Origin: an uncultured Gemmatimonadaceae bacterium
GTDB taxonomy: Bacteria > Gemmatimonadota > Gemmatimonadetes > Gemmatimonadales > Gemmatimonadaceae
Assembly (NCBI GenBank): GCA_963716745.1
Contig: OY970320.1
Location: 800,001 to 864,000 of the forward strand
Length of the DNA stretch: 64,000 nucleotides
Direction of reading: 5' to 3'
Shown in pieces: positions 1 to 12,886 of the stretch; the first letter of the stretch is position 1; the number at the start of each line of letters is the position of its first letter. Below the pieces are notes generated by a model. That model saw only the letters and a program-made list of their open reading frames with translations, did not search any database and was not told the origin of the DNA. A program made the translations under genes and the position numbers.

Positions 1-860
1 ACTCCTCCTCGCATCTTGGGCGCGAGCGCTTCGAGAGTCTTGCGAAATGTGGCGGCACCCGCATGATGCGCTTCGTCGATCAATACGAGGCCAAATTTCG
101 GAACCGTGTCGAGTCGGGTCGACACACTTTGTATCGTCGCGAATGTGATACCATCCCAGAATGCCGGAGCCTCGCCTTCCGCGAGTCGGTGTGTCGGCAC
201 CCACTTAGGCAGCTGATACCAGAATCCACGTAACAACTGATCGACAAGTTCCCGAGTGTGAGCGAGAACAAGGACGCGCCCATGCTCCACCAGGTCGTCC
301 CGGAGAAGATCCGCGACCAATTCCGCCATCACCACCGTCTTGCCCAATCCCGTCGCCATAACCGCCTGCGCCCTCCCCGTATCAAGAAGCGCTTCGCGCA
401 AGCGGCCCGCGACGTCGGTTTGATAGTCGAAGAGAGTCCGTCGCGACGGGGGATATTCAGGACTCTCGCTCATCAGACTTGTCAGCACTGCTGGATCGGC
501 GACTTCAACCTTCAGACCGGTTCGCTCAAAGCGAAGTCTTTCCTCGTTAAAGGCGTCGCCAGGAGGACGCGAAGTCACGACCACCATTCGCTGAGCCCGA
601 TAGTATCGCGCGGCCTCTACGACCTCGGACACCGCCGCGCTTGGGGGGCCCGTAGTAGTAGTATGCTTGCACTGCAATACCCATAGGTCCCCATCCTTTG
701 CGCCGAGAACGTCGGCACCACGATCGCCGCTGCCACCGACCAGGCGCACATCATCGAAGCCGTTCGCCAACAGCAGTCGCGCAACGTCACGCTCGAAAGC
801 CGGCCACGGACCCCTGAGCAACCGGCGTTCATCCAGAAAGCCGACCACAGCCGATTTCAC
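1..860 (-). CDS. Mrr-type (PD-D/ExK) restriction endonuclease fused to SF2 DEAD/DEAH (ResIII-like) helicase; partial, runs off the left edge
   Basis: Manual translation from GTG at 860 (GTGA overlap with the upstream stop): FERDVARLL..GFDDVRLVGGSGDRGADV..LWVLQCK (Mrr_cat-like), LFDYQ (Q motif), MATGLGKT (Walker A), VLVLAHTRELVDQ (motif Ia), LIDEAHH (Walker B). No stop before base 1. Confidence 0.9.
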   Translation of the reverse strand, partial: MKSAVVGFLDERRLLRGPWPAFERDVARLLLANGFDDVRLVGGSGDRGADVLGAKDGDLWVLQCKHTTTTGPPSAAVSEVVEAARYYRAQRMVVVTSRPPGDAFNEERLRFERTGLKVEVADPAVLTSLMSESPEYPPSRRTLFDYQTDVAGRLREALLDTGRAQAVMATGLGKTVVMAELVADLLRDDLVEHGRVLVLAHTRELVDQLLRGFWYQLPKWVPTHRLAEGEAPAFWDGITFATIQSVSTRLDTVPKFGLVLIDEAHHAGAATFRKTLEALAPKMRGG

Positions 861-3226
861 GTCTCGGTGTCCTCGGCCGGCTCCCCTGATAGCAAGTCCA
901 ACGCCAATGCCGCCCTAAGGAGGCGCGGCCTTGATGCAGCTTCAAGCTCGGCGCTATCCTGCTCTGCCAACCAGAGGACATCGCGCATAAGCCCCACGTG
1001 ATATTCCACCGTACGAGCCCTAGCGGCCTCAGTGGCAGCGGGACGCTCATAGTCAATGCTGGAATACGGCGCATCCCAATACCGACCATCGAAGAACAGT
1101 TCTGGATGGCGCTCAACAAAACGAAGAAGTGTCGCGCGCGGCGCGTAGTCTAGAAACCGCCCCTCAGCAATCTCCTTCTGTGAGCTCGAAACGGAACGCT
1201 CCGCCATCTTGCCAAATACGGCTTCCTGTTCGATCGGAGTGAGTTCGTTGAAGAGCGCACGCCCGTCTCCGGCCGCCGAGGAGGACTGCCCAACGCTGCG
1301 TGCAATCGCGCCAAGAAGCATCGAGGCCTCACCCGAGAGTGCAACATGGTCGAGTTTCTCGGTACCGGCATACTCGTCCCGCAACCCAGCCAAGACCGAA
1401 GCGAACGTGGCTGTTGTCTGGCGGTTCCTGAGAAAGTCCATTGCGGAATGCGCAAATTCTGCCAGCAAAGCATCAAGCGGCGTCAACGTTGCCGATCGAA
1501 ATGCGCCGTGCCCTGGATTCACAAAGAACTCATGAATGCCGGCCGGAGTCGCCTTAATGACCCACGGCACCGCTGTGGTACCAAGAACGGGGTCATCGGC
1601 CTGAACTCCATACGCCTTAGTCTCCCACCTCTGCCCGGAGGAGCTATCTCTGTACTCTCGGCTCAGCGACGGGATCGCAGTTCTTGGGGGCGGTGGCGGG
1701 CCGGCGGCGGGTGGCGGTACGGGGGCAGCGCCCGGAGGCGCGGTCGGTTTGCCGCCAAATCCCGGAATTGTTCCTCCGCCAGAATCGCCGCCAGTTGGCG
1801 GCGTTGACTTTGGAACGAGGAGCTCGCGATCGGCCTCCATCACAAGATCCCACCATTTCCGGTCCGTTTGAAATTCCGCCTCGCCCGCATAGAAACGCTT
1901 GGCCATTCGCGCCGCGTCATCGTTATCTCTAACGATCATCAACTTCTCATACGCACCCGCAACCTTGGACTTTGGACTATTCCGACGGAACACCTGGAAG
2001 AGGAGAAACAGCGGCGCGTCATTTTGGGGGAAGCCAAGCTCGGCAGCACGGTCCGGACGCAGCGGTCCCGCGCCGCGCACGAGGTGAACCATCTCCTCCC
2101 ACGCCGGATCGTTCCGATCAAATCGGTCCTTCGTGTAAGTCACTCGGCAGTGATCAATGTGAATCTCTCCCACCAGCCGGCCTCGACCGCGGGGATCGTC
2201 AACTGGATACTCAGGTTCGACTGAACCGCCAGCATCCCAAAAGAAGAGATCCTTGTTGGCAGACTCGATCTTTCGCCCGTTGCGTATGAAGTCAATGCCG
2301 TAGTCTACATCGCTCACGTAACGCTGCAGCCCAACCCATCCATAAACACGGCGCTGCCTGGCAACGACATTATCCGCCGAGTCGCAGGCTGGACACGTCG
2401 TCGCATCCGAAGGCAGCCACTGCCAACACTTCACGCAAAAGGATCTTGTCGGCAGCTCAACGTTGAGGGACTGATACGCCGATACGGTTCCAAACCTGGC
2501 AGTCAGGACCTCGCGGACGGGGTTCCCTTCGCCGCCCCAAATGCAATGGCTTCTTCCCCGCAGCGCCGTGCCATTTAGCAACAGGCGGAAGGAAATGGGG
2601 ACACCGTTCGGCCGGAGCATCGCCGCATACATGCTCTCAAACTCTCGAACAAGTCGCGATCGATTAGCGGTCTTCCCTAGCCATTGTCGCTGCTCTGGTT
2701 TCAATCGCTCGATCGTAAGCTCCGTACCCTGCTCAAGAGCATCGGCCTTCGGGCGCGTCAATCTCGGTGTTCGAAAGTGACGTTGTTGCACCAACTTGTC
2801 GAAGTCGATTTCCAACCCGCACCACTCGGTATCACCTCTCCGCGTGGTCCAAACCTGAGTCACACTTCCCAGACGAGCCGTAGCAATATTGAACCCCATC
2901 CCGAACATTCCGAGGTTGTTTATCGGGTCATTGCTCGTCCAGCCGGCCCGTACGGCCTTCTCGAGCGTTGCGACGTCCATGCCAGGCCCGTTATCCCTGA
3001 CCGCCACGCGTCCCCTGGCCGAGTCGGCTGTCGGCACAGTGATGTGAATCTCCGGCTCAGGAACCGGATGACCCGATCGCTTCGCCGAAAGGAAGGCGTC
3101 GACCGAGTTGTCGATGAATTCCGCCAGGCAACGCCACTGAGGAAGTGTGATCTCCCCAAGCATAGGCAGGATGCGAGGGTCCGGCTGCAGATCGAACTCG
3201 GTGGCAGCTGCGCGAGGTCCCGTCAT
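857..3226 (-). CDS. MORC-like GHKL ATPase (HATPase_c_3) with inserted Zn ribbon and C-terminal extension
   Basis: LAEFIDNSVDA, RDNGPGMD, NLGMFGMGFNIATARLG and GTEL GHKL motifs; CVKC..CPAC; S5-like GIDFIRNGRKI..GEIHID; Pro/Gly-rich linker. Confidence 0.88.
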   Translation of the reverse strand: MTGPRAAATEFDLQPDPRILPMLGEITLPQWRCLAEFIDNSVDAFLSAKRSGHPVPEPEIHITVPTADSARGRVAVRDNGPGMDVATLEKAVRAGWTSNDPINNLGMFGMGFNIATARLGSVTQVWTTRRGDTEWCGLEIDFDKLVQQRHFRTPRLTRPKADALEQGTELTIERLKPEQRQWLGKTANRSRLVREFESMYAAMLRPNGVPISFRLLLNGTALRGRSHCIWGGEGNPVREVLTARFGTVSAYQSLNVELPTRSFCVKCWQWLPSDATTCPACDSADNVVARQRRVYGWVGLQRYVSDVDYGIDFIRNGRKIESANKDLFFWDAGGSVEPEYPVDDPRGRGRLVGEIHIDHCRVTYTKDRFDRNDPAWEEMVHLVRGAGPLRPDRAAELGFPQNDAPLFLLFQVFRRNSPKSKVAGAYEKLMIVRDNDDAARMAKRFYAGEAEFQTDRKWWDLVMEADRELLVPKSTPPTGGDSGGGTIPGFGGKPTAPPGAAPVPPPAAGPPPPPRTAIPSLSREYRDSSSGQRWETKAYGVQADDPVLGTTAVPWVIKATPAGIHEFFVNPGHGAFRSATLTPLDALLAEFAHSAMDFLRNRQTTATFASVLAGLRDEYAGTEKLDHVALSGEASMLLGAIARSVGQSSSAAGDGRALFNELTPIEQEAVFGKMAERSVSSSQKEIAEGRFLDYAPRATLLRFVERHPELFFDGRYWDAPYSSIDYERPAATEAARARTVEYHVGLMRDVLWLAEQDSAELEAASRPRLLRAALALDLLSGEPAEDTET

Positions 3227-3266
3227 TCTCCCTATCCCTTTGCAGAATGTAAGAGGCGCGTCCTTC

Positions 3267-3734
3267 TCATCTCATTCCTCTCTCGAGTGCCGCGAGTCCC
3301 TTCTCCAATTCAGCGAGCAGCGCCAGGTTTAGCCGCAGGCCCTTCCGCGTCGGAGCGCGATCGTCCGAGTCCCCGGGTGCGAAATAGAGTCGGATATCGG
3401 CCTTCGCGGCGCCTTGCCAAAGTGCAATTCCGAATCTGATCTCCCGGCCGCCACTAAGCGGGATCTTGGCCACCGTGCACTCGCGATCGGTGCCCGCACT
3501 GCGCAGTTCCTGAATCGCGTCAATCGCGTCGGATATCCTCTCGATCGGTAGCGAAACTCCCTTGGGCGTTGCAACAAAGACATTCTCTCGCGTCAGCACA
3601 AATTCGCGGACATGCAAGAAGCACCTGCCTTGGTAGGCCTGAGACAAGACCCGTACTTCGAGCGCGGGCGTTATCAGGATTCTCGCCGCGAGGGTGTCGC
3701 AGCTCCGGTCGGTAGGACGATTTGACGTCATCAA
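3267..3734 (-). CDS. Tandem PC4/YdbC-like ssDNA-binding protein
   Basis: Two copies of the PC4 signature: FLHVREF..ATPKGVSL and KADIRLY..PTRKGLRL, each followed by a helix. Confidence 0.75.
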   Translation of the reverse strand: MMTSNRPTDRSCDTLAARILITPALEVRVLSQAYQGRCFLHVREFVLTRENVFVATPKGVSLPIERISDAIDAIQELRSAGTDRECTVAKIPLSGGREIRFGIALWQGAAKADIRLYFAPGDSDDRAPTRKGLRLNLALLAELEKGLAALERGMR

Positions 3735-3753
3735 CCGATTACTAAGAGCGATC

Positions 3754-4776
3754 TCATAGCTCGATCCTGGCGTGCTGCGCCACGGATCCCAGCGCCGCCT
3801 GCAGGTTCCGGAGCTTCTCGATCTTCAATGCGTGCCCCTTTTTGAGGTCTTCGACCTCGACAAGCGGTACACTGAGCAACTCCTCGGCAGCTCGATCAAT
3901 GGTCGCCCAAAAATTCGAGATTAGCGACGGATTGCGGGCTTGAAGCACCCCGAACGCCGCCTGAGCTCCGCCGCTCTCAAATGCTTCCAGTGCAGCATCA
4001 TTCTCCAAGAAATCATTTAGCCCTCTTACATCTTTCGCATCAGGAAACCTGCCGTCATGTACCCACTGACGAAAATCACGCATGAAACCTGGATTGTCCT
4101 CGCGTTTCTCGCGCAACTCCTTCTTCTTCATAAACTCTTCGAAATGTGAAAACCTGTTGATTCCGTCCGAGTCGCCAAACTCTTCCATGTATGCTTTTGT
4201 CTCTTCGTATGCTCCGATCTTCTGCGCGATCTTAGCACGCGACCATCTGAGGTGGGCAGCGAGAAAGTCGTAGGTCTTGCCGTAGAGCGAGTTCATCTTC
4301 CATACATACTCTGCCTGCTCGAATGCGCGCCATTCGATCTTGCCCGCGATATGAAGCTCTCCGATGAGCATGGTCAGTTGTTCGTCCGTTACCTCCGCCG
4401 GTAGCTTCTGAACATAGACTTCTCGCCAGCGAGGGTCATCCGGATAGCGCTTCGCCAGCTCGCGAAGACATACCGTTCGACAGTTGCCCTCCACTACCAG
4501 GCCGTCGCGCTGCACAATTGGCTCTACTATCAGCCCGCCATTTTGGTAGATCGAGTTGTAGAGGTCCTTCACCGGATCCATTTCCCAGATCAGGGTGTGC
4601 AGATCGGCATCCGTGGCGTTCAAGCTCCGCTTCCGAATGAGGTAACTCACACGTTGATTGCCGGGATCAAGCTTGAGAAAGCTGATTGGAACTCTCGCGC
4701 GCTCCAGTTGAAAGTCTCGATTTCCTAGGCGAATCGTCTGCTGACTTTCTTCTGTACGCTGGTTAGGTCCAGTCAT
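3754..4776 (-). CDS. ParB/Sulfiredoxin-fold N-terminal domain protein
   Basis: LKLDPGNQR, SIYQNGG..EPIV, VVEGNCRTVCL and LHIAGKIEW match the LDPxNPR / EGNRR / HxxGxxxW pattern; start placed at ATG 4776 after GAGG. Confidence 0.75.
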   Translation of the reverse strand: MTGPNQRTEESQQTIRLGNRDFQLERARVPISFLKLDPGNQRVSYLIRKRSLNATDADLHTLIWEMDPVKDLYNSIYQNGGLIVEPIVQRDGLVVEGNCRTVCLRELAKRYPDDPRWREVYVQKLPAEVTDEQLTMLIGELHIAGKIEWRAFEQAEYVWKMNSLYGKTYDFLAAHLRWSRAKIAQKIGAYEETKAYMEEFGDSDGINRFSHFEEFMKKKELREKREDNPGFMRDFRQWVHDGRFPDAKDVRGLNDFLENDAALEAFESGGAQAAFGVLQARNPSLISNFWATIDRAAEELLSVPLVEVEDLKKGHALKIEKLRNLQAALGSVAQHARIEL

Positions 4777-4834
4777 GTAGTGCCTCTGTAAGAGCGGACA
4801 TGGGTGCAATAGGCGCTGAGAAGTGCTTCTAACG

Positions 4835-5113
4835 TCATGAGGCCTTCGAAGGGTAAGTCAACTCCCATACTCCTTGCGGCGACAATGACGCGGAGCGGAG
4901 GACGCCGGCTAGCCGGAGCCAATGCGCGCTCCACCGGATATCGTACTGCCATGTAAAAAATAGCTCGCGCCTCAGGCGCAGCTCGTTCTCGTTCTGTTCC
5001 CAGACTGCCTCGCAAGCTTTCCCAATCGAAGCGGAACCGCCCGACGCCTTGAGAGCACTCACCAGCGCTCGGTCAAGGAATTCCTTGTCCGACATTGAGG
5101 AGCCCTGATTCAC
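4835..5113 (-). CDS. Small winged-helix protein, Mrr N-terminal-like
   Basis: ALKASGGSA..WQYDIRWSAHWLRLAGVL..QGVWELT resembles the Mrr_N pattern (RWa..L..aG...GvW.lT). Confidence 0.55.
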   Translation of the reverse strand: MNQGSSMSDKEFLDRALVSALKASGGSASIGKACEAVWEQNENELRLRRELFFTWQYDIRWSAHWLRLAGVLRSASLSPQGVWELTYPSKAS

Positions 5114-6998: not shown

Positions 6999-9900
6999 TC
7001 AGCATGTAGAGGTTCGCTCAGCATGTCGCGCCAATCTGCACATAAGATTGACCTGCCTCATCTCATCAACGCCCCTACATCGCCCTGCCATAAGCCCCGG
7101 TGATCCGAGCACCCCCGCTACCGCCTTCGCCCTACTCACCGCCACATTCATTCTGTTCGCACTCAGCAAGAACTCCGCCCCTCGAGGCGAGTCCTCGAGC
7201 GTCGATGAACACATCGACACGATGACCACCGGCGCCTCCTGACCCTGGAACTTGTCCACGGATCCCACTCGCACCGCCGGGTCCATCCGCCCGCGCAGAT
7301 TCCGCACCTGCATGTTGAACGGCGCAACGACTAATACGTCTTCCGTGGTCATTGCGCGAGCGGGTTTGTTTTCCACGGTCACGCTGCGCGCGAGCAGCTC
7401 CTTGACGAGCGGCACGATCGCGTCGGCCTCCTCGTCGCTGCTCTGGCTGTTTCCTTCGTGTTCCACCGGCATCCACACGATGCCGTGCTGGGTTCCAACG
7501 GCGTTCCCCTCGGTGCGCGTCGCGCTCTTGAGGCGGCCCTCATAAAATGCATCCGATATGAACGCGCACACGTCCGGGTGCATGCGGTAGCTCAGCCCCA
7601 GGAAGATCCCGAAGTCCGGCGGGATGGTCGCGTGACCGTTCAGCGCGTACTCCAGACAACTCATGCCGCTCTCGCCGGGGTGGGTGCCCTTGAGCGGCTG
7701 CGCGAGCTGCATCTGGTCGCCGATGAGCACGATGTTCTTCGCGCTCTGGCCCATCGCCACGGCGTTCGCGAGGCTCACCTGCCCCGCTTCGTCGATGAAC
7801 AGGTAGTCGAGCGAGCCAACGAGCGCTTCGCGGCTGAACAGCCACGCGGTGCCGCCGAGTACCCACGGCCCGGGGGTGCCGGCCAACTGGTCGGCGTCGC
7901 CGGACGCGGCGAGGTGGGTGATCCGCTCGTGAAGCTCTACGGTCTCGTCGCCGTCGCTGCCCACCTTGTAGAGCGCCGCGTTCCCGGGCGGGGCCGGATC
8001 GTTCTTCAGGATCGCGGCCATCACGTTGAGCACCACCTTGTGGCTGTTGGCGGCGATACCGACGCGCTTTCCGCGACGGAGCAGCTCGACGATCATGCTT
8101 GAAGCGGTGTAGGTCTTTCCAGTTCCTGGGGGGCCTTGAATGCAAAGTGTGCTGCCATCGAGTCTACAGACGATATCGATGGCGTCGCGTAGGAAGTTGG
8201 GACCGTCCTCAACGAGTGCTCCACCATCGTGGCCCTCTATCCGCGGCTTCCGGCGGAAGAGGAGATCATCAATGGCGGTGCATCGTTCATCGTGCGTCGT
8301 GCATTGTTGGGCGAACCGCACGAGGGATTCCTTGATCGGCTTCGCGCTCAGGTAGTCGTCGGGGATCAGGCTCAGGCGATCGGGGAGTTGCTTGTTCTTC
8401 GACAGCTTGAGCTCGAGCAGGCCGGCGTCCGCATCCAAGGTCACGATGCTGCACTTCGTGCGCCATTGGTCGGTCACGACCACCTTACAACCGGCGTGCA
8501 GCTTGGTATCGCTGTTGGGATCGAACGAGTATTCGTGCGCCAATGACTGTTTCTCGGGACGCGCCGCCTTCTTTGTGCGCACGAGGCCCGTGAGACAATC
8601 GAAATCTTCGCGCAGCTGCTCCTCGGTCTTCTCCAAACGGTCGAAATACTGCCACCACACCGGCTTCTCCTCGCGGCGGTGGTACTCCACGAGCCAGCCG
8701 ACGAGCGCGGTCACGCGCGCACGTTCTGGATCCTCTTCCTCCTCAGCCATCTCGGCGAGCTTGGCCGCAACCACGGCGCCCGGATCAGGCTCGCGCGGCG
8801 GACGGTCATCATCAGCGCCGGCAGGCTCAGTCGCCACCGGCGGCGCCGGATATTTCGCATCGAACTCCGCCTTCCGGTCCATGAGCCAGTCGCGCACGCC
8901 CACGGTGCTCTCGCAGTCCACGCGATTGTACTCGCGGATCTCGTTCAACCGCGCGCTCCCCGCCCAGCCCTGCGGCTCGCCGCTGTCGATCCACGCCTGG
9001 TAGGCCAGCACGGAATCGCCGGCGTTGGACACAGCCTGCTCGCGCGGCGGCATGTAGAGGCACTCGATGTCCTTCAGCGAATAACCGGTGGCCCCGATCG
9101 TCACGCCCTGACGCACGATGTTGTACAGGTCCACCAGCACTTCATTGCGCAGCAGATCGTCCACCTCGTTCTCGCGCGTGGCGTACTTGCCCATCAAACG
9201 GCGCAGCGCCGTTTTCTCGTACGCGGCGTAATGGTACACGTGCATCTCGGGATCCTGCTGCCAGCGCGCGTGCGCGAAATCGACGAAGCCCTCGAAGGCT
9301 TTTTTCTCCTGCTCGGGCGAATGCGCCCACCAGTCGTGGAATTTCGGTTTCCCGTCTTCGACAGTGACGGCGCCGAAGAGATACTCGAGGCCGCCGGGAT
9401 AGAACGGGAATCCTTCCATGTCGAAGAACACGTCCAGCGGCCGAGGCGGCGGCAGCAGCGCGAGCCCGCGCCCGGGGTCGTTGGGCGAGGGCGGGCGCAA
9501 TTCGAAGAGCGGTTTGTCGAGCTCGCGCGATGCCTGCTGCAGCGCCGCCTGCCGGCGGAGCTTCGTGAGCGTTTCGGGAGAGATTCGGGGAATGCCTACT
9601 ATTGTACTGTCGGCGAAGTCTTTGAGCGTGGTGATGCCCGCATCCTCGAGCCGGCGGATCTGCGTGCGCGTGATATTCGCGACGCGACTGAGATGGTCGC
9701 GCTCTTCCAGCAGCTGCTCGGCGAACGTGCTCCACTGGCCATAGCTGCGCTCGAGCCCGGGGTCGGGCATGTTGTCGCGGCGCCAATTCTTCTGGAACAC
9801 CAGGAACGCGTCGCGCTGCACCAGATAGTAGAAATAGAAATCGTCCGTCTTGAACGACTCTTCCGTGCTGTCGCCGAAGATGAACTTGATCTGCTTGGGC

Positions 9901-10415
9901 CGAACCCCCTGCATGGCCTCGAGCATGCCGGCGTAGCAGCAGAGCTGCACGATGAAGGCCGGCTTCGCCGAGCGCGCGAGTTTGACGTCGCGGGGCTCGT
10001 AGTGGTAGTCGCCGAGTTTCGAGGGGCCGGGGATTTTGTACAGGAGATCCGGATAGCCCTGCCAGTCGCCGTCGGTGAGGCAAGCTTGGTAGATCACATT
10101 CGCACCAGCGTGCATGGCGTCCAGCGTGTGGCGCGCGGCATGCTCGTCGTTGCGATCGATCTCCACGAGGTCCGGGATCTCGGCGCGCAGTTTGGCGAGG
10201 TGCCGCTTCTCGTGCTCATCGCCCATGCGCGCGGCGAGATCATCGCCGCCTTCGCGGACGTCGGGGGCGATCGAGATGCCGGCGGGGATTCCGGGAACGG
10301 CCGCGGCGCCGCCCTCGAACTTGGACCGCTCACACCAAGCCGAAAAATCGCCTTCGAGGAAAGCGAGAAGGTCCTTTGGCGAGAACTGCGTGCGGCCGTC
10401 GGGGAGTTTCTTCAC
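6999..10415 (-). CDS. TM0106-family RecB-like nuclease + RNase H-like + UPF1-like SF1 helicase
   Basis: GYPDLL..DVKLAR..QLCCY; FFDMEG..YNRVDC; QGPPGTGKT, FIDEAGQ, GDQMQL, SVDKFQGQE, NVAVSRA. Confidence 0.93.
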   Translation of the reverse strand: MKKLPDGRTQFSPKDLLAFLEGDFSAWCERSKFEGGAAAVPGIPAGISIAPDVREGGDDLAARMGDEHEKRHLAKLRAEIPDLVEIDRNDEHAARHTLDAMHAGANVIYQACLTDGDWQGYPDLLYKIPGPSKLGDYHYEPRDVKLARSAKPAFIVQLCCYAGMLEAMQGVRPKQIKFIFGDSTEESFKTDDFYFYYLVQRDAFLVFQKNWRRDNMPDPGLERSYGQWSTFAEQLLEERDHLSRVANITRTQIRRLEDAGITTLKDFADSTIVGIPRISPETLTKLRRQAALQQASRELDKPLFELRPPSPNDPGRGLALLPPPRPLDVFFDMEGFPFYPGGLEYLFGAVTVEDGKPKFHDWWAHSPEQEKKAFEGFVDFAHARWQQDPEMHVYHYAAYEKTALRRLMGKYATRENEVDDLLRNEVLVDLYNIVRQGVTIGATGYSLKDIECLYMPPREQAVSNAGDSVLAYQAWIDSGEPQGWAGSARLNEIREYNRVDCESTVGVRDWLMDRKAEFDAKYPAPPVATEPAGADDDRPPREPDPGAVVAAKLAEMAEEEEDPERARVTALVGWLVEYHRREEKPVWWQYFDRLEKTEEQLREDFDCLTGLVRTKKAARPEKQSLAHEYSFDPNSDTKLHAGCKVVVTDQWRTKCSIVTLDADAGLLELKLSKNKQLPDRLSLIPDDYLSAKPIKESLVRFAQQCTTHDERCTAIDDLLFRRKPRIEGHDGGALVEDGPNFLRDAIDIVCRLDGSTLCIQGPPGTGKTYTASSMIVELLRRGKRVGIAANSHKVVLNVMAAILKNDPAPPGNAALYKVGSDGDETVELHERITHLAASGDADQLAGTPGPWVLGGTAWLFSREALVGSLDYLFIDEAGQVSLANAVAMGQSAKNIVLIGDQMQLAQPLKGTHPGESGMSCLEYALNGHATIPPDFGIFLGLSYRMHPDVCAFISDAFYEGRLKSATRTEGNAVGTQHGIVWMPVEHEGNSQSSDEEADAIVPLVKELLARSVTVENKPARAMTTEDVLVVAPFNMQVRNLRGRMDPAVRVGSVDKFQGQEAPVVIVSMCSSTLEDSPRGAEFLLSANRMNVAVSRAKAVAGVLGSPGLMAGRCRGVDEMRQVNLMCRLARHAERTSTC

Positions 10416-11179: not shown

Positions 11180-11374
11180 TCATGTGCCGTACGCCTCCCG
11201 CGGCGGCACGAGCCGCAAGATCGGCGCACCACAGAAAGTCTCCACCAGATTGTTCTCGGCGCGCGGAGGCGTCGGAACTTTCAGGTAGAACTTCTGCGGG
11301 CAGTAGGTCGGCTCCCGCCCGTTCACGTAGCGGCGGCCGCACTTTGGGCACTCCCACGAGAAGCGGTTCGACAT
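11180..11374 (-). CDS. Stand-alone 4-Cys (Zn-ribbon-like) small protein
   Basis: SWECPKCGRRYVNGREPTYC..CGAPIL, homologous to the N-termini of the next two genes. Confidence 0.75.
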   Translation of the reverse strand: MSNRFSWECPKCGRRYVNGREPTYCPQKFYLKVPTPPRAENNLVETFCGAPILRLVPPREAYGT

Positions 11375-11380
11375 GCAAGG

Positions 11381-11402
11381 AATCTGCACCCTGGGTCTGA
11401 CA
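11381..11402 (-). promoter_or_regulatory. PafBC-like promoter TGTC-N12-CAGATT, leaderless
   Basis: Minus strand TGTC AGACCCAGGGTG CAGATT CCTTGC ATG(11374). Confidence 0.6.
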
Positions 11403-11457
11403 GTGGTGAGGTCTCGGCAATTGCTGCCGCCGGTAGTCGGGAACGCCTAAGTCTGCC

Positions 11458-12136
11458 TCACTCTTCCGTCTGCTCCAGCGCCGCCTTCGGGTCCATTCCT
11501 TCGTAGATCACCTTCATCAGTCGGTCGAACTCCAGAGTCGGCCAGACAGAAGCTCGCGTTGATCACGTTATTGACCATCTGCTCGGTGAGCACGCAGTCG
11601 TCGACATCGATCCCGGTGCGGTAACGCACGAGGCCTTCCTCGAAGTCGAAATCGAAGCCGCCGACGATCGCGGCCCAGTTCGCTCGCGTGACGTACTCCG
11701 CAACGGCCGGCCGCCGCACGGGCGGCACTTTGAGCGCCAGCATCGCGCGCGCAATGACCTGTCGCTCCTCTTCGCGCGCCGTGACAATGACGCGGAGCGT
11801 CGAGTGCCTTCCGTTCAGCGTGAACTCCACGCTCTCATACTCAGGCAAGACCAAATGAGGCCAACCGCGGCCCTGCACCGCGCTGACCGCTATCGCCAAC
11901 AGGGAGCCGTCGGGCGCTGTCCCGCCCCCGCTCGCTTTTTCCTCGAATGGCTCGGCTGGCCGCGCGAGGGGCAGGATCGGCGCGCCGCACCGCGTGGCGA
12001 GCAGCCCGGTGGCAGCGTCGGCCCGCGGATGCGCCGGCGCGTGCAGTGAGAGTTGCTCCTCGCAGTACGTCGGCTCCTCACCGTTCACGTACTTCTTGCC
12101 GCACTTGGGGCACTGCCAGCTGTAGACAGTTTGCAT
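11458..12136 (-). CDS. 4-Cys domain + YbjN-family protein (frameshift near 11535)
   Basis: MQTVYSWQCPKC..; VAEYVTRANW..GGFDFDFEEGLVRYR (YbjN). The alternative frame gives FDRLMKVIYEGMDPKAALEQTEE*, matching the paralogue. Confidence 0.8.
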
Positions 12137-12142
12137 GCTATG

Positions 12143-12163
12143 AGTGTGCAAAGGGTTGCGACA
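12143..12163 (-). promoter_or_regulatory. PafBC-like promoter TGTC-N11-CACACT, leaderless
   Basis: Minus strand TGTC GCAACCCTTTG CACACT CATAGC ATG(12136). Confidence 0.5.
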
Positions 12164-12886
12164 TCACTTCTCCGGCCGCTCCAGAGCCGCCTTCGGCTCC
12201 TCGCCGCCGTAGATCACCTGCATCAAGCGGTCGTGGTAGATGTCCGCCATGTACGAGGTCATCCCGAACAGAGTGTCGACCATCTTCTCGGTGAGCGTGC
12301 CGCCCTCCACATCAATGCCGCAGCGGAAGCGCACACTGCCGTTCTCGAAGTCGAGATCGAAGGCGCCAGTGAAACACCTGTAGTTCACGCGCGCGATGAA
12401 CTCCGCGGCGGCCGGCCGGCGTTCTGGAGGCACCTTGAGCGCCAGATAAGAGGACACGATGACCTGTTGTTCGGGTTCGCGCGCGGTGACGACGACGCGG
12501 ACCGTCGTGCGCTTGCAGGCGAGCGAGAATTCCACTGCAGGGAATTCAGCGTACCGCGCGAAATTCCACTTGCACGCGCGAATGGTGCTGACCACCGTGG
12601 CCATGATCGGACCGTCGGGCGCTCTCTCCTCTTCGCTGATTCTCTCCTCGTTGGGATCGCAGGCGTCAATGCTATCGGACATGTCCGGCGACTCCTCCCG
12701 CGCCGCTTCCGGCGCCTCAAGCGGCAGGATCGGCGCGCCACAGCGCGTCTCCACGAGCCCGCTCTCGTCCGCGAGCGGATGCCCGGGCGTCTTCAGGAAG
12801 AACGACTGCTCGCAGTACGTGGGCTCTTTCCCGTTCACGTATTTCTTGCCGCACTTGGGGCACTGCCAGCTGTAGACGGTTTGCAT
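12164..12886 (-). CDS. 4-Cys domain + YbjN-family protein
   Basis: MQTVYSWQCPKCGKKYVNG..; AAEFIARVNY..GAFDLDFENGSVRFR. Confidence 0.85.
   Translation of the reverse strand: MQTVYSWQCPKCGKKYVNGKEPTYCEQSFFLKTPGHPLADESGLVETRCGAPILPLEAPEAAREESPDMSDSIDACDPNEERISEEERAPDGPIMATVVSTIRACKWNFARYAEFPAVEFSLACKRTTVRVVVTAREPEQQVIVSSYLALKVPPERRPAAAEFIARVNYRCFTGAFDLDFENGSVRFRCGIDVEGGTLTEKMVDTLFGMTSYMADIYHDRLMQVIYGGEEPKAALERPEK

Follow-up and report, generated by a model that had tools for sequence, protein, structure and literature searches.

A predicted MORC restriction cassette beside a ParB-like/tandem-PC4 gene pair in a defence island of an uncultured Gemmatimonadaceae bacterium: probably two modules and not one system

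Introduction

Iyer, Abhiman and Aravind (2008; Biol Direct 3:8, PMC2292703) predicted a first type of MORC operon for prokaryotes. As far as the excerpted text of that paper goes, its type-1 layout consists of a MORC gene adjoining a Rad25-like helicase that is fused to an N- or C-terminal restriction-fold nuclease, and cytosine methylases and Vsr are frequent with operons of this type. Here, we describe a related locus at the left end of a stretch of 64,000 nucleotides (hereafter the window) of the genome of an uncultured Gemmatimonadaceae bacterium (assembly GCA_963716745.1, contig OY970320.1, positions 800,001 to 864,000 of the forward strand). In this locus, genes encoding a ParB/KorB-like protein and a tandem-PC4 protein are followed by genes for a MORC-type GHKL ATPase and an Mrr-nuclease::superfamily 2 (SF2) helicase. 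An earlier interpretation based on the letters of the window and its open reading frames (ORFs), which we call the sequence-only reading, had taken the four genes as one undescribed defence operon.

For the first two of these genes, the closest described systems are the ParB and Noc proteins and the KorB clamp, as well as the defence regulators CapW/BrxR, CapH-CapP and CapK-CapS. KorB is paired with KorA. GHKL ATPases of MutL/MORC-like type are also found in MZA (MzaABCDE) and in other systems represented in PADLOC and NCBIfam. Our observations comprise gene content, two conservation patterns, predicted folds and palindromes in related loci; all of the biochemistry discussed below is inferred.

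Two conservation patterns at one locus

The four genes very probably represent two modules rather than one system. One module, which is widespread, is composed of the MORC ATPase, the Mrr::SF2 helicase and a 176-amino-acid (aa) protein encoded just outside the window. The other is an independent, rare and mobile cassette of a ParB-like gene and a tandem-PC4 gene that is apparently undescribed. This conclusion follows from two distributions, namely the absence of both ParB-like and PC4 genes from all MORC loci compared and the presence of MORC at only a few of the loci that hold the pair.

MORC loci were collected by scanning one genome per species, and the best 80 of the 461 stretches encoding a relative were compared (MORC identity 43-63%). 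The helicase-nuclease gene adjoins the MORC gene in 78 of them, both misses (L034 and L047) being contig edges, and the 176-aa gene is adjacent in 73. The suggestion of the sequence-only reading that the ATPase and the helicase act as a functional pair is thus well supported. The four genes that it listed are real as well, but it had missed the 176-aa third partner of MORC and the usual methylase: clustering of flanking ORFs revealed a Dcm-type C5 cytosine methylase within ~5 kb in 72 of the 80 loci, mostly directly upstream and co-oriented. An Eco29kI-like nuclease is present in 24 loci and integrases in 7, and no ParB-like or PC4 gene could be detected in any of the 80 (tblastn, E 1e-5). Two further proteins mark sub-types of the cassette, a PIN_8-domain protein (~380 aa) encoded directly after the 176-aa gene in 25 MORC loci and a 233-aa protein without family that is encoded upstream on the opposite strand in 18.

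A metagenome scan with the ParB-like protein yielded 64 loci, 54 of them with at least 500 nt and 21 with at least 2.5 kb of flanking sequence. In 51 of the 54 (the misses being L098, L139 and L146), a co-oriented PC4 ORF immediately follows the ParB-like gene, with identities to the window copy down to 24%, and some of these PC4 partners are single domains of 77-89 aa. MORC follows the pair in only five of the 21 loci (L083, L085, L086, L087 and L093), all of which belong to the clade nearest to the window (ParB-like identity 69-75%), and is absent from the other 16. Among these are L089 and L090, where the ParB-like protein shares 74% identity with that of the window. In all five MORC-bearing loci a 389-aa Dcm gene lies between the PC4 and ATPase genes. 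L085 and L086 are 99.97% identical, and the five contigs count as four independent ones.

The same genes could be read as encoding one complex of all four (really five) proteins, in which a ParB-like clamp and a PC4 sensor of single-stranded DNA (ssDNA) license the MORC ATPase and the helicase-nuclease. The tight, co-oriented spacing without a terminator-like site and the identical gene order in five related metagenome contigs would fit such a complex, and clusters on rhizobial plasmids (see below) indicate that a looser theme of ParB, GHKL ATPase and SF2 helicase exists. However, neither upstream gene accompanies MORC in any of the 80 MORC loci compared, 16 of the 21 pair loci do without MORC, close relatives among them, and in the very clade that holds both modules a Dcm gene separates them; the few independent contigs may, moreover, share one inherited island. 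Synteny of the four genes, proposed earlier as a check of the one-system idea, turned out to be confined to this narrow clade. We consider a single complex improbable on these grounds. It is within a single lineage of a mobile island that the two modules lie side by side.

The MORC module

Pfam assigned the ATPase to HATPase_c_3 (E 8.1e-13), and a profile built from 16 family members and compared with 177,635 PDB sequences matched only MORC3 and MORC4 (E 8.5e-5 to 2.5e-3). These matches point to a GHKL ATPase of the MORC family, and not to MutL, Hsp90 or a topoisomerase. In the alignment, a CxxC...CxxC zinc ribbon inside the chain is invariant; a linker rich in proline and a helical C-terminal region, the latter conserved, are also seen. 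An S5 or Morc6_S5 domain was not matched by Pfam in residues 160-480 even at E values up to 10, and the corresponding Atlas search gave a weak lead only (Morc6_S5 at 0.76). At least 2116 full-length relatives of the ATPase were counted.

The full helicase protein contains Mrr_cat (E 7.9e-14), ResIII (E 5.6e-22) and Helicase_C (E 1e-17) domains. Its best NCBIfam rows (RadD, EcoAI R subunit, dnd_restrict_1 and XPB) are all far under their cut-offs, and the XPB and rad25 models likewise stay under theirs (E 2.4e-16 and 2e-9, respectively). Assignment to the methyl-directed type IV enzymes (PADLOC mREase_IV, E 3.8e-44) was rejected, as this match covers the helicase core only (residues 144-487 against positions 220-569 of 945). 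The domain calls of the sequence-only reading for PC4, GHKL/MORC, Mrr and SF2 were reproduced by Pfam, and the motifs that it named are all found in the translations: EFIDN in the ATPase, GKT in the helicase (as GLGKT) and QCK in the Mrr domain (as LQCK). Its ParB call was not reproduced by Pfam, but was recovered by a fold search with the AlphaFold model (see below).

The 176-aa protein belongs to no family of Pfam, NCBIfam or PADLOC. Its AlphaFold model has a predicted local distance difference test score (pLDDT) of 92.3, and Foldseek found nothing in PDB at E <= 0.001. A wider VIA structure search aligned residues 73-176 to PD-(D/E)xK folds with middling Z scores of 4.8-6.6 (CdiA-CT, Z 6.6; NucS, Z 5.9; Can1, Can2 and PaqCI) and residues 1-77 to small helical DNA-binding domains, again with middling scores (Z ~5). 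The nearest named Atlas cluster, NucS_C at 0.79, is a lead only, and apart from weak leads of this kind the Atlas searches returned clusters without a name. The model suggests that the N-terminal half is helical and that the C-terminal half resembles a restriction endonuclease.

Both the gene content of this module and its link with a methylase match the prediction of Iyer et al. (2008), which leads us to assign it, at the level of sequence, to the restriction half of the type-1 prokaryotic MORC restriction-modification cassette. As in the type-1 operons, a GHKL ATPase stands beside a Rad25/type-III-like SF2 helicase with an N-terminal restriction-endonuclease-fold nuclease, and cytosine methylase and Vsr genes usually lie near the MORC loci studied here. 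One of these loci (L071) is from Roseovarius sp. 217, and an abbreviation for a Roseovarius sp. appears in a figure legend in the excerpted part of PMC2292703. On the other hand, that excerpted text is silent on the conserved third gene of 176 aa, and the window has no Dcm gene between the upstream genes and MORC. The MORC/helicase part of the locus had therefore already been predicted in 2008, as the excerpts show, and the earlier description of the operon as undescribed can be kept for the ParB-PC4 pair only.

With regard to named systems, PADLOC, run with the left-adjacent sequence included as proposed earlier, and NCBIfam gave no full match, either for the MORC-helicase-176-aa module or for the ParB-PC4 pair. 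MZA, which shares a MutL/MORC-like GHKL ATPase with this locus as other PADLOC and NCBIfam GHKL systems do, was rejected (MzaB, 19.1 bits against a cut-off of 850; PADLOC E 0.013), and no Z1, AIPR or other Mza component was found. Literature searches on HATPase_c_3 in the context of defence, phage and helicases returned only an unrelated preprint on a soil metagenome.

Based on the excerpts of Iyer et al. (2008) and on domain content, Dcm would mark the cell's own DNA, and a MORC dimer would close in an ATP-dependent manner on DNA that is unmarked. MORC could thereby couple the recognition site to the translocating SF2 helicase, whose Mrr domain would cut, and the 176-aa protein may serve as an adaptor or as a second nuclease.

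The ParB-like protein and its PC4 partner

The only Pfam match of the ParB-like protein, ddrB-ParB at E 0.008, is below the significance cut-off, and its alignment profile retrieved nothing meaningful from PDB. In contrast to this lack of a sequence-level match to any solved ParB, Foldseek aligned the AlphaFold model (pLDDT 88.3) with 13 listed chains of ParB, Noc and KorB at probability 1.00 (E 1.9e-5 to 7e-4; 205-249 aligned columns). The protein is predicted to have an N-terminal ParB/Srx-type domain, a helix-turn-helix (HTH) domain and a helical C-terminal half, and the HTH region is nearly invariant among homologues. Its 221 relatives in a large protein collection are all named only 'hypothetical protein'. 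The PADLOC candidate PDC-M38 was rejected: PDC-M38A matches in part (E 1.2e-12; residues 78-234 against positions 59-228 of 715), and no other gene of the locus matches PDC-M38.

The protein encoded next to it matches PF02229 with 47.8 bits against a cut-off of 25 (E 1e-12) in two stretches. Both PC4 halves are conserved in 25 aligned relatives, with R43, R115 and G132 invariant, and the tandem PC4 protein is accordingly a predicted ssDNA binder. It has few relatives: 63 representative clusters among 1.84 billion were found at E <= 1e-3 and 14 at E <= 1e-10. Our literature searches found no paper that joins PC4-like and ParB-like proteins and nothing relevant on PC4 together with ParB, helicase or defence.

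Like the CTP-dependent ParB/Noc and KorB DNA clamps (PDB 8qa8, 8qa9, 7bnk and 7ol9), the ParB-like protein combines a predicted N-terminal ParB domain with an HTH fold, and like KorB with KorA, it is encoded with a small DNA-binding partner. A further common trait is that promoters of related loci bear palindromic sites. Unlike KorA, this partner is a predicted PC4-type ssDNA binder and not an HTH repressor. Further differences from ParB, Noc and KorB are a C-terminal half that forms a different helical domain and a CTP-binding GERRxR box that apparently reads EGNCRT in a non-significant alignment, and, unlike in ParB systems, no ParA partner lies beside the gene.

Since relatives of ParB, KorB and Noc act in partition and plasmid gene silencing (according to PDB entry titles), the pair might serve a mobile element rather than its host, either as a partition or silencing module or as a counter-defence comparable to AcrIIA22. 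In the excerpted text of PMC8545432, AcrIIA22 is a PC4-like anti-CRISPR nickase that stems from hypervariable regions and nicks plasmids. In L085 and L086, the vicinity of the related island contains an integrase gene and an excisionase-like HTH gene, which would also fit. However, a search of 50,697 phage records gave no match to the ParB-like gene, and on plasmids there were only six, all distant; no ParA-type partner was found among the scanned neighbours of the pair; and AcrIIA22, which according to the same excerpts consists of one small domain without the PC4 helix, resembles the PC4 partner as a remote analogue in fold rather than as a demonstrated relative. A role of this kind is very unlikely in our view.

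Distant ParB-like homologues (27-35% identity, several per cluster) were also seen on two rhizobial plasmids, L147 (NZ_CP064694.1) and L148 (NC_012854.1), in clusters that include an SNF2 helicase, a DndB-like DGQHR protein, a radical SAM protein and a 522-aa HATPase_c_3 ATPase and that possibly represent a DNA-modification or restriction system. No likeness to PC4 could be detected in the 128-aa and 139-aa proteins encoded there (hhalign probability 0.15% and 4.2%).

Operator-like palindromes and a possible switch

The pair stands before a variety of genes. The ORF after PC4 is co-oriented in 28 of 33 loci and begins within 130 nt in 22 of the 33. Its types include Dcm (6 loci), an EcoRI-type adenine methylase, a CBASS cyclase with a 4TM effector, a TIR protein, a UvrD-like helicase, WYL, Mrr_N, HNH and DUF3825 proteins and many proteins without family; housekeeping neighbours occur at a few loci (L113 and L137).

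Upstream of many ParB-like copies we noticed a TTGACA box preceded by an A-tract, together with repeated GTAC-core motifs. We counted 15 occurrences of GTAC-N4-7-GTAC in the 9,200 nt that precede ParB-like genes, against 6 in 265,828 nt elsewhere, and the loci concerned (L089, L095, L119-L123, L127, L129, L134 and L145) have it ~70-180 nt upstream of the ParB-like start, where it often overlaps or flanks the TTGACA box. Strict GTACT/AGTAC inverted pairs are similarly placed, with 12 of 16 within 200 nt upstream of the ParB-like start, and eleven further loci (L098, L107, L108, L110, L113, L115, L120, L125, L128, L131 and L138) have an A-tract immediately before the -35 box. This looks like a conserved promoter and operator pattern that travels with the ParB-PC4 cassette, and the palindromes together with the near-invariant HTH look like the pattern of an autoregulated DNA-binding protein with its own operator.

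Position and operator-like repeats together suggest, as a possibility somewhat short of even odds, that the pair is a DNA-bound switch, that is, an ssDNA-sensing regulator or sensor of the defence genes downstream. The ParB-like protein would bind GTAC-type palindromes at promoters, its PC4 partner would report ssDNA arising from infection or damage, and the pair would govern the expression or activity of the defence genes that happen to follow it. In the literature excerpts consulted, CapW/BrxR, CapH-CapP and CapK-CapS are likewise small conserved cassettes before many unrelated defence systems, and several known defence regulators respond to ssDNA or DNA damage, a signal that PC4 could sense. 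As far as the same excerpts go, the pair differs from them in that its protein families are unrelated to theirs, that it is co-oriented with its cargo and that its regulatory role is deduced from the genomes.

Alternatively, the pair may be an autonomous two-gene defence system, with PC4 as the sensor of phage ssDNA and the ParB/Srx-fold protein as the effector, acting as a nuclease, a nucleotide hydrolase or a DNA-entrapping clamp. The pair does form a self-contained, mobile unit, and defence genes are frequent among its neighbours. Moreover, excerpts of PMC10853773 and PMC12839542 cite ParB/Srx-superfamily proteins with nuclease and NTPase activity, the Shedu nuclease is proposed to sense nucleic acid through a PC4/Whirly-type domain (bioRxiv 10.1101/2023.08.10.552793), and the partial match to the candidate family PDC-M38A may be counted here as well. 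On the other hand, the fold resembles the HTH-bearing, DNA-binding ParB, Noc and KorB proteins and not the nuclease-type ParB proteins, operator-like palindromes lie in the pair's own promoter, and its constant place before variable co-oriented genes, with very short gaps, is better explained by a leader or regulator cassette. We regard an autonomous system as unlikely.

The best explanation of the region is then two separable modules, arranged head to tail in a horizontally acquired island, the MORC module being responsible for restriction and the ParB-PC4 pair acting as a switch; we assign this explanation as a whole a probability of about 0.6. Several observations weigh against it. Both modules occur in the same order throughout the closest clade (L083, L085, L086, L087 and L093), and in the window only 40 nt and no terminator-like site separate PC4 from MORC. 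GTAC-N4-7-GTAC was found in only 11 of 46 eligible loci and is absent from this locus and from the closest clade, with two sites at chance level elsewhere in the window and one in the sequence fetched to its left (L002), so that in this genome the regulator reading has no operator to point to. The EGNCRT motif apparently replaces the canonical GERRxR, and in the hhalign comparison with the ParB_N protein of L098, where it falls opposite DGERRW, the probability was only 1.5%. The 176-aa protein has no evident D...ExK motif in addition to its middling fold match. Finally, most of the metagenome contigs are short, many downstream genes are without an assigned function, and a 2026 preprint on Tiamat, in the part available, still calls MORC-based defence in prokaryotes 'proposed' and cites only Iyer et al. 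(2008) for it.

In the window and its closest clade, the pair follows a 92-aa ORF instead of a palindrome-bearing promoter. Here, the pair would have lost its own promoter and would abut MORC directly in the place where close relatives hold Dcm. The lack of a promoter of its own and the short gap to MORC suggest that the genes from the neighbouring anti-phage gene DS-11 (described below) to the 176-aa gene are probably co-transcribed. As both modules occur together and in the same order in the closest clade, they may be functionally coupled there. A bolder and rather doubtful extension is that the pair represents a new class of two-protein switch, similar in build to KorB-KorA but reading ssDNA, which heads many unrelated defence operons, governs or licenses them, and in this genome has been welded onto the MORC module in place of the methylase.

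Layout of the locus and the surrounding island

Coordinates are given in Table 1. The description of four co-oriented and tightly packed genes in a block of lower GC content proved correct. The PC4 gene is separated from the ParB-like gene by 19 nt (22 nt if PC4 starts at the ATG at 3731) and from MORC by 40 nt, and the MORC and helicase genes overlap by 4 nt (857-860), with a GTG start over a TGA stop. The ParB-like start was picked from the alignment of homologues. As had been supposed, the helicase gene runs off the window edge, where its frame is open; it is complete in the genome. No terminator-like site was found in the short gaps between the ParB-like, PC4 and ATPase genes, and a promoter scan of L002 12400-20000 detected no sigma-70-like promoter.

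Table 1. Genes of the locus. Positions refer to the window unless preceded by L002, the fetched sequence that includes 15 kb to the left of the window.
Feature	Position	Strand	Remarks
176-aa gene	L002 13645-14175	-	fifth co-oriented gene; overlaps the helicase stop by 4 nt
Mrr::SF2 helicase, whole gene	L002 14172-15860	-	562 aa; end 829 bases left of the window
Mrr-nuclease::SF2 helicase gene, part in the window	1..860	-	first 286 codons (ORF 3-860, open at the edge)
MORC-type GHKL ATPase gene	857..3226	-	789 aa; HATPase_c_3
Tandem-PC4 gene	3267..3734	-	155 aa; two PC4 repeats in one chain; PF02229
ParB/KorB-like gene	3754..4776	-	340 aa from the ATG at 4776; ORF open from 4809 (3754-4809)
92-aa ORF	4835..5113	-	between DS-11 and the ParB-like gene; no family
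DS-11 CBS-domain anti-phage gene	5157..6218	-	NCBIfam NF053863

Upstream of the ParB-like gene lie the 92-aa ORF and DS-11, co-oriented and with gaps of 58 and 43 nt. The 92-aa ORF has no match in Pfam, NCBIfam or PADLOC. DS-11 is identified by NF053863 (E 9.9e-113; 376.3 bits against a cut-off of 260) and confirms the defence setting suggested by the sequence-only reading; it is a neighbour and belongs to neither module. DS-11 and the 92-aa ORF precede the ParB-like gene only in the closest clade of the window (L083, L085, L086, L093 and L124).

The GC fraction is ~0.52-0.62 from L002 10000 to window position 7000 and ~0.62-0.70 in the flanks. Because of this low GC content, the absence of the ParB-like gene from all 400 other genomes of the same phylum and the integrase beside the related island in L085 and L086, we conclude that the locus is a horizontally acquired defence island. 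No tRNA was found at the island borders by tRNA scans. The full related island is seen in L093, with DS-11, the ParB-like, PC4, Dcm, ATPase and helicase genes, the 176-aa gene and Vsr.

Two neighbouring regions may be mentioned in addition. Beyond Vsr, L093 (10801-13822) encodes a DUF4231/SLATT protein, a MazG_C protein and a 5-hmdU DNA kinase-like (HMUDK_hel) protein; genes of the SLATT, MazG_C and HMUDK_hel types are usually linked to thymidine hypermodification. In the window, positions 6999-10415 (minus strand) encode an 1138-aa protein with a TM0106-type RecB-like nuclease (TIGR03491, E 1.4e-67), an RNase_H_2 domain and a superfamily 1 helicase (AAA_11/AAA_12), to which PADLOC MkoA matches in the C-terminal helicase part only. 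The GC content of this gene is host-like, and the gene is therefore probably outside the island.

The cytosine methylase in this genome

Where its relatives hold a Dcm gene, the window has the 40 nt between PC4 and MORC. The sole Dcm-like sequence of the genome is found on the same strand at L002 ~11352-12495, ~1.1 kb downstream of the 176-aa gene, and in the assembly it contains one in-frame stop and one frameshift. The region L002 10232-12510 (window -4768 to -2490) also includes a Vsr gene with two frameshifts and an Eco29kI-like gene with one.

The assembly consists of one contig, and its marker completeness is 89.8%, whereas the listed genomes of the same family reach 97-100%. An independent 151-nt contig from a public run, nearly identical otherwise, has two extra bases exactly at the Dcm frameshift, which lengthen the stop-free stretch of Dcm from 188 to 282 codons; this contig has a depth of 2 and may stem from the sample behind the present assembly. 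It came from the only run matched in the public-run search, a weak match (7% of words) that covers 6 of 30 bins at depth ~2 and has little bearing on the other frameshifts and none on habitat. In view of the low completeness, the two extra bases and the reopened 282-codon frame, caution is needed before decay of Dcm is assumed, and assembly indel errors are a possible cause of the frameshifts in Dcm, Vsr and the Eco29kI-like gene.

The interval that separates the 176-aa gene from Dcm (L002 12492-13523; window -2508 to -1477) contains a 121-aa ORF and a 136-aa HNH_2 ORF, which may be pieces of one broken gene. Among the fetched loci the former has no relatives and the latter three short matches only.

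Implications

Tight spacing alone had made two modules resemble one system. Prokaryotic MORC cassettes are thought to be ancestral to the eukaryotic MORC chromatin ATPases, and we know of no such cassette that has been tested at the bench; the locus described here offers an intact and compact copy that could be cloned for a first test. The more novel item is the ParB-PC4 pair, and it is the part worth pursuing. If it is a regulator or sensor that stands before diverse defence systems, it would be a new family among the few known controllers of immune operons, and PC4-type ssDNA binders and ParB-type clamps would gain a role in bacterial immunity. If the switch reading is true, the MORC nuclease of this bacterium could answer to ssDNA instead of, or besides, methylation.

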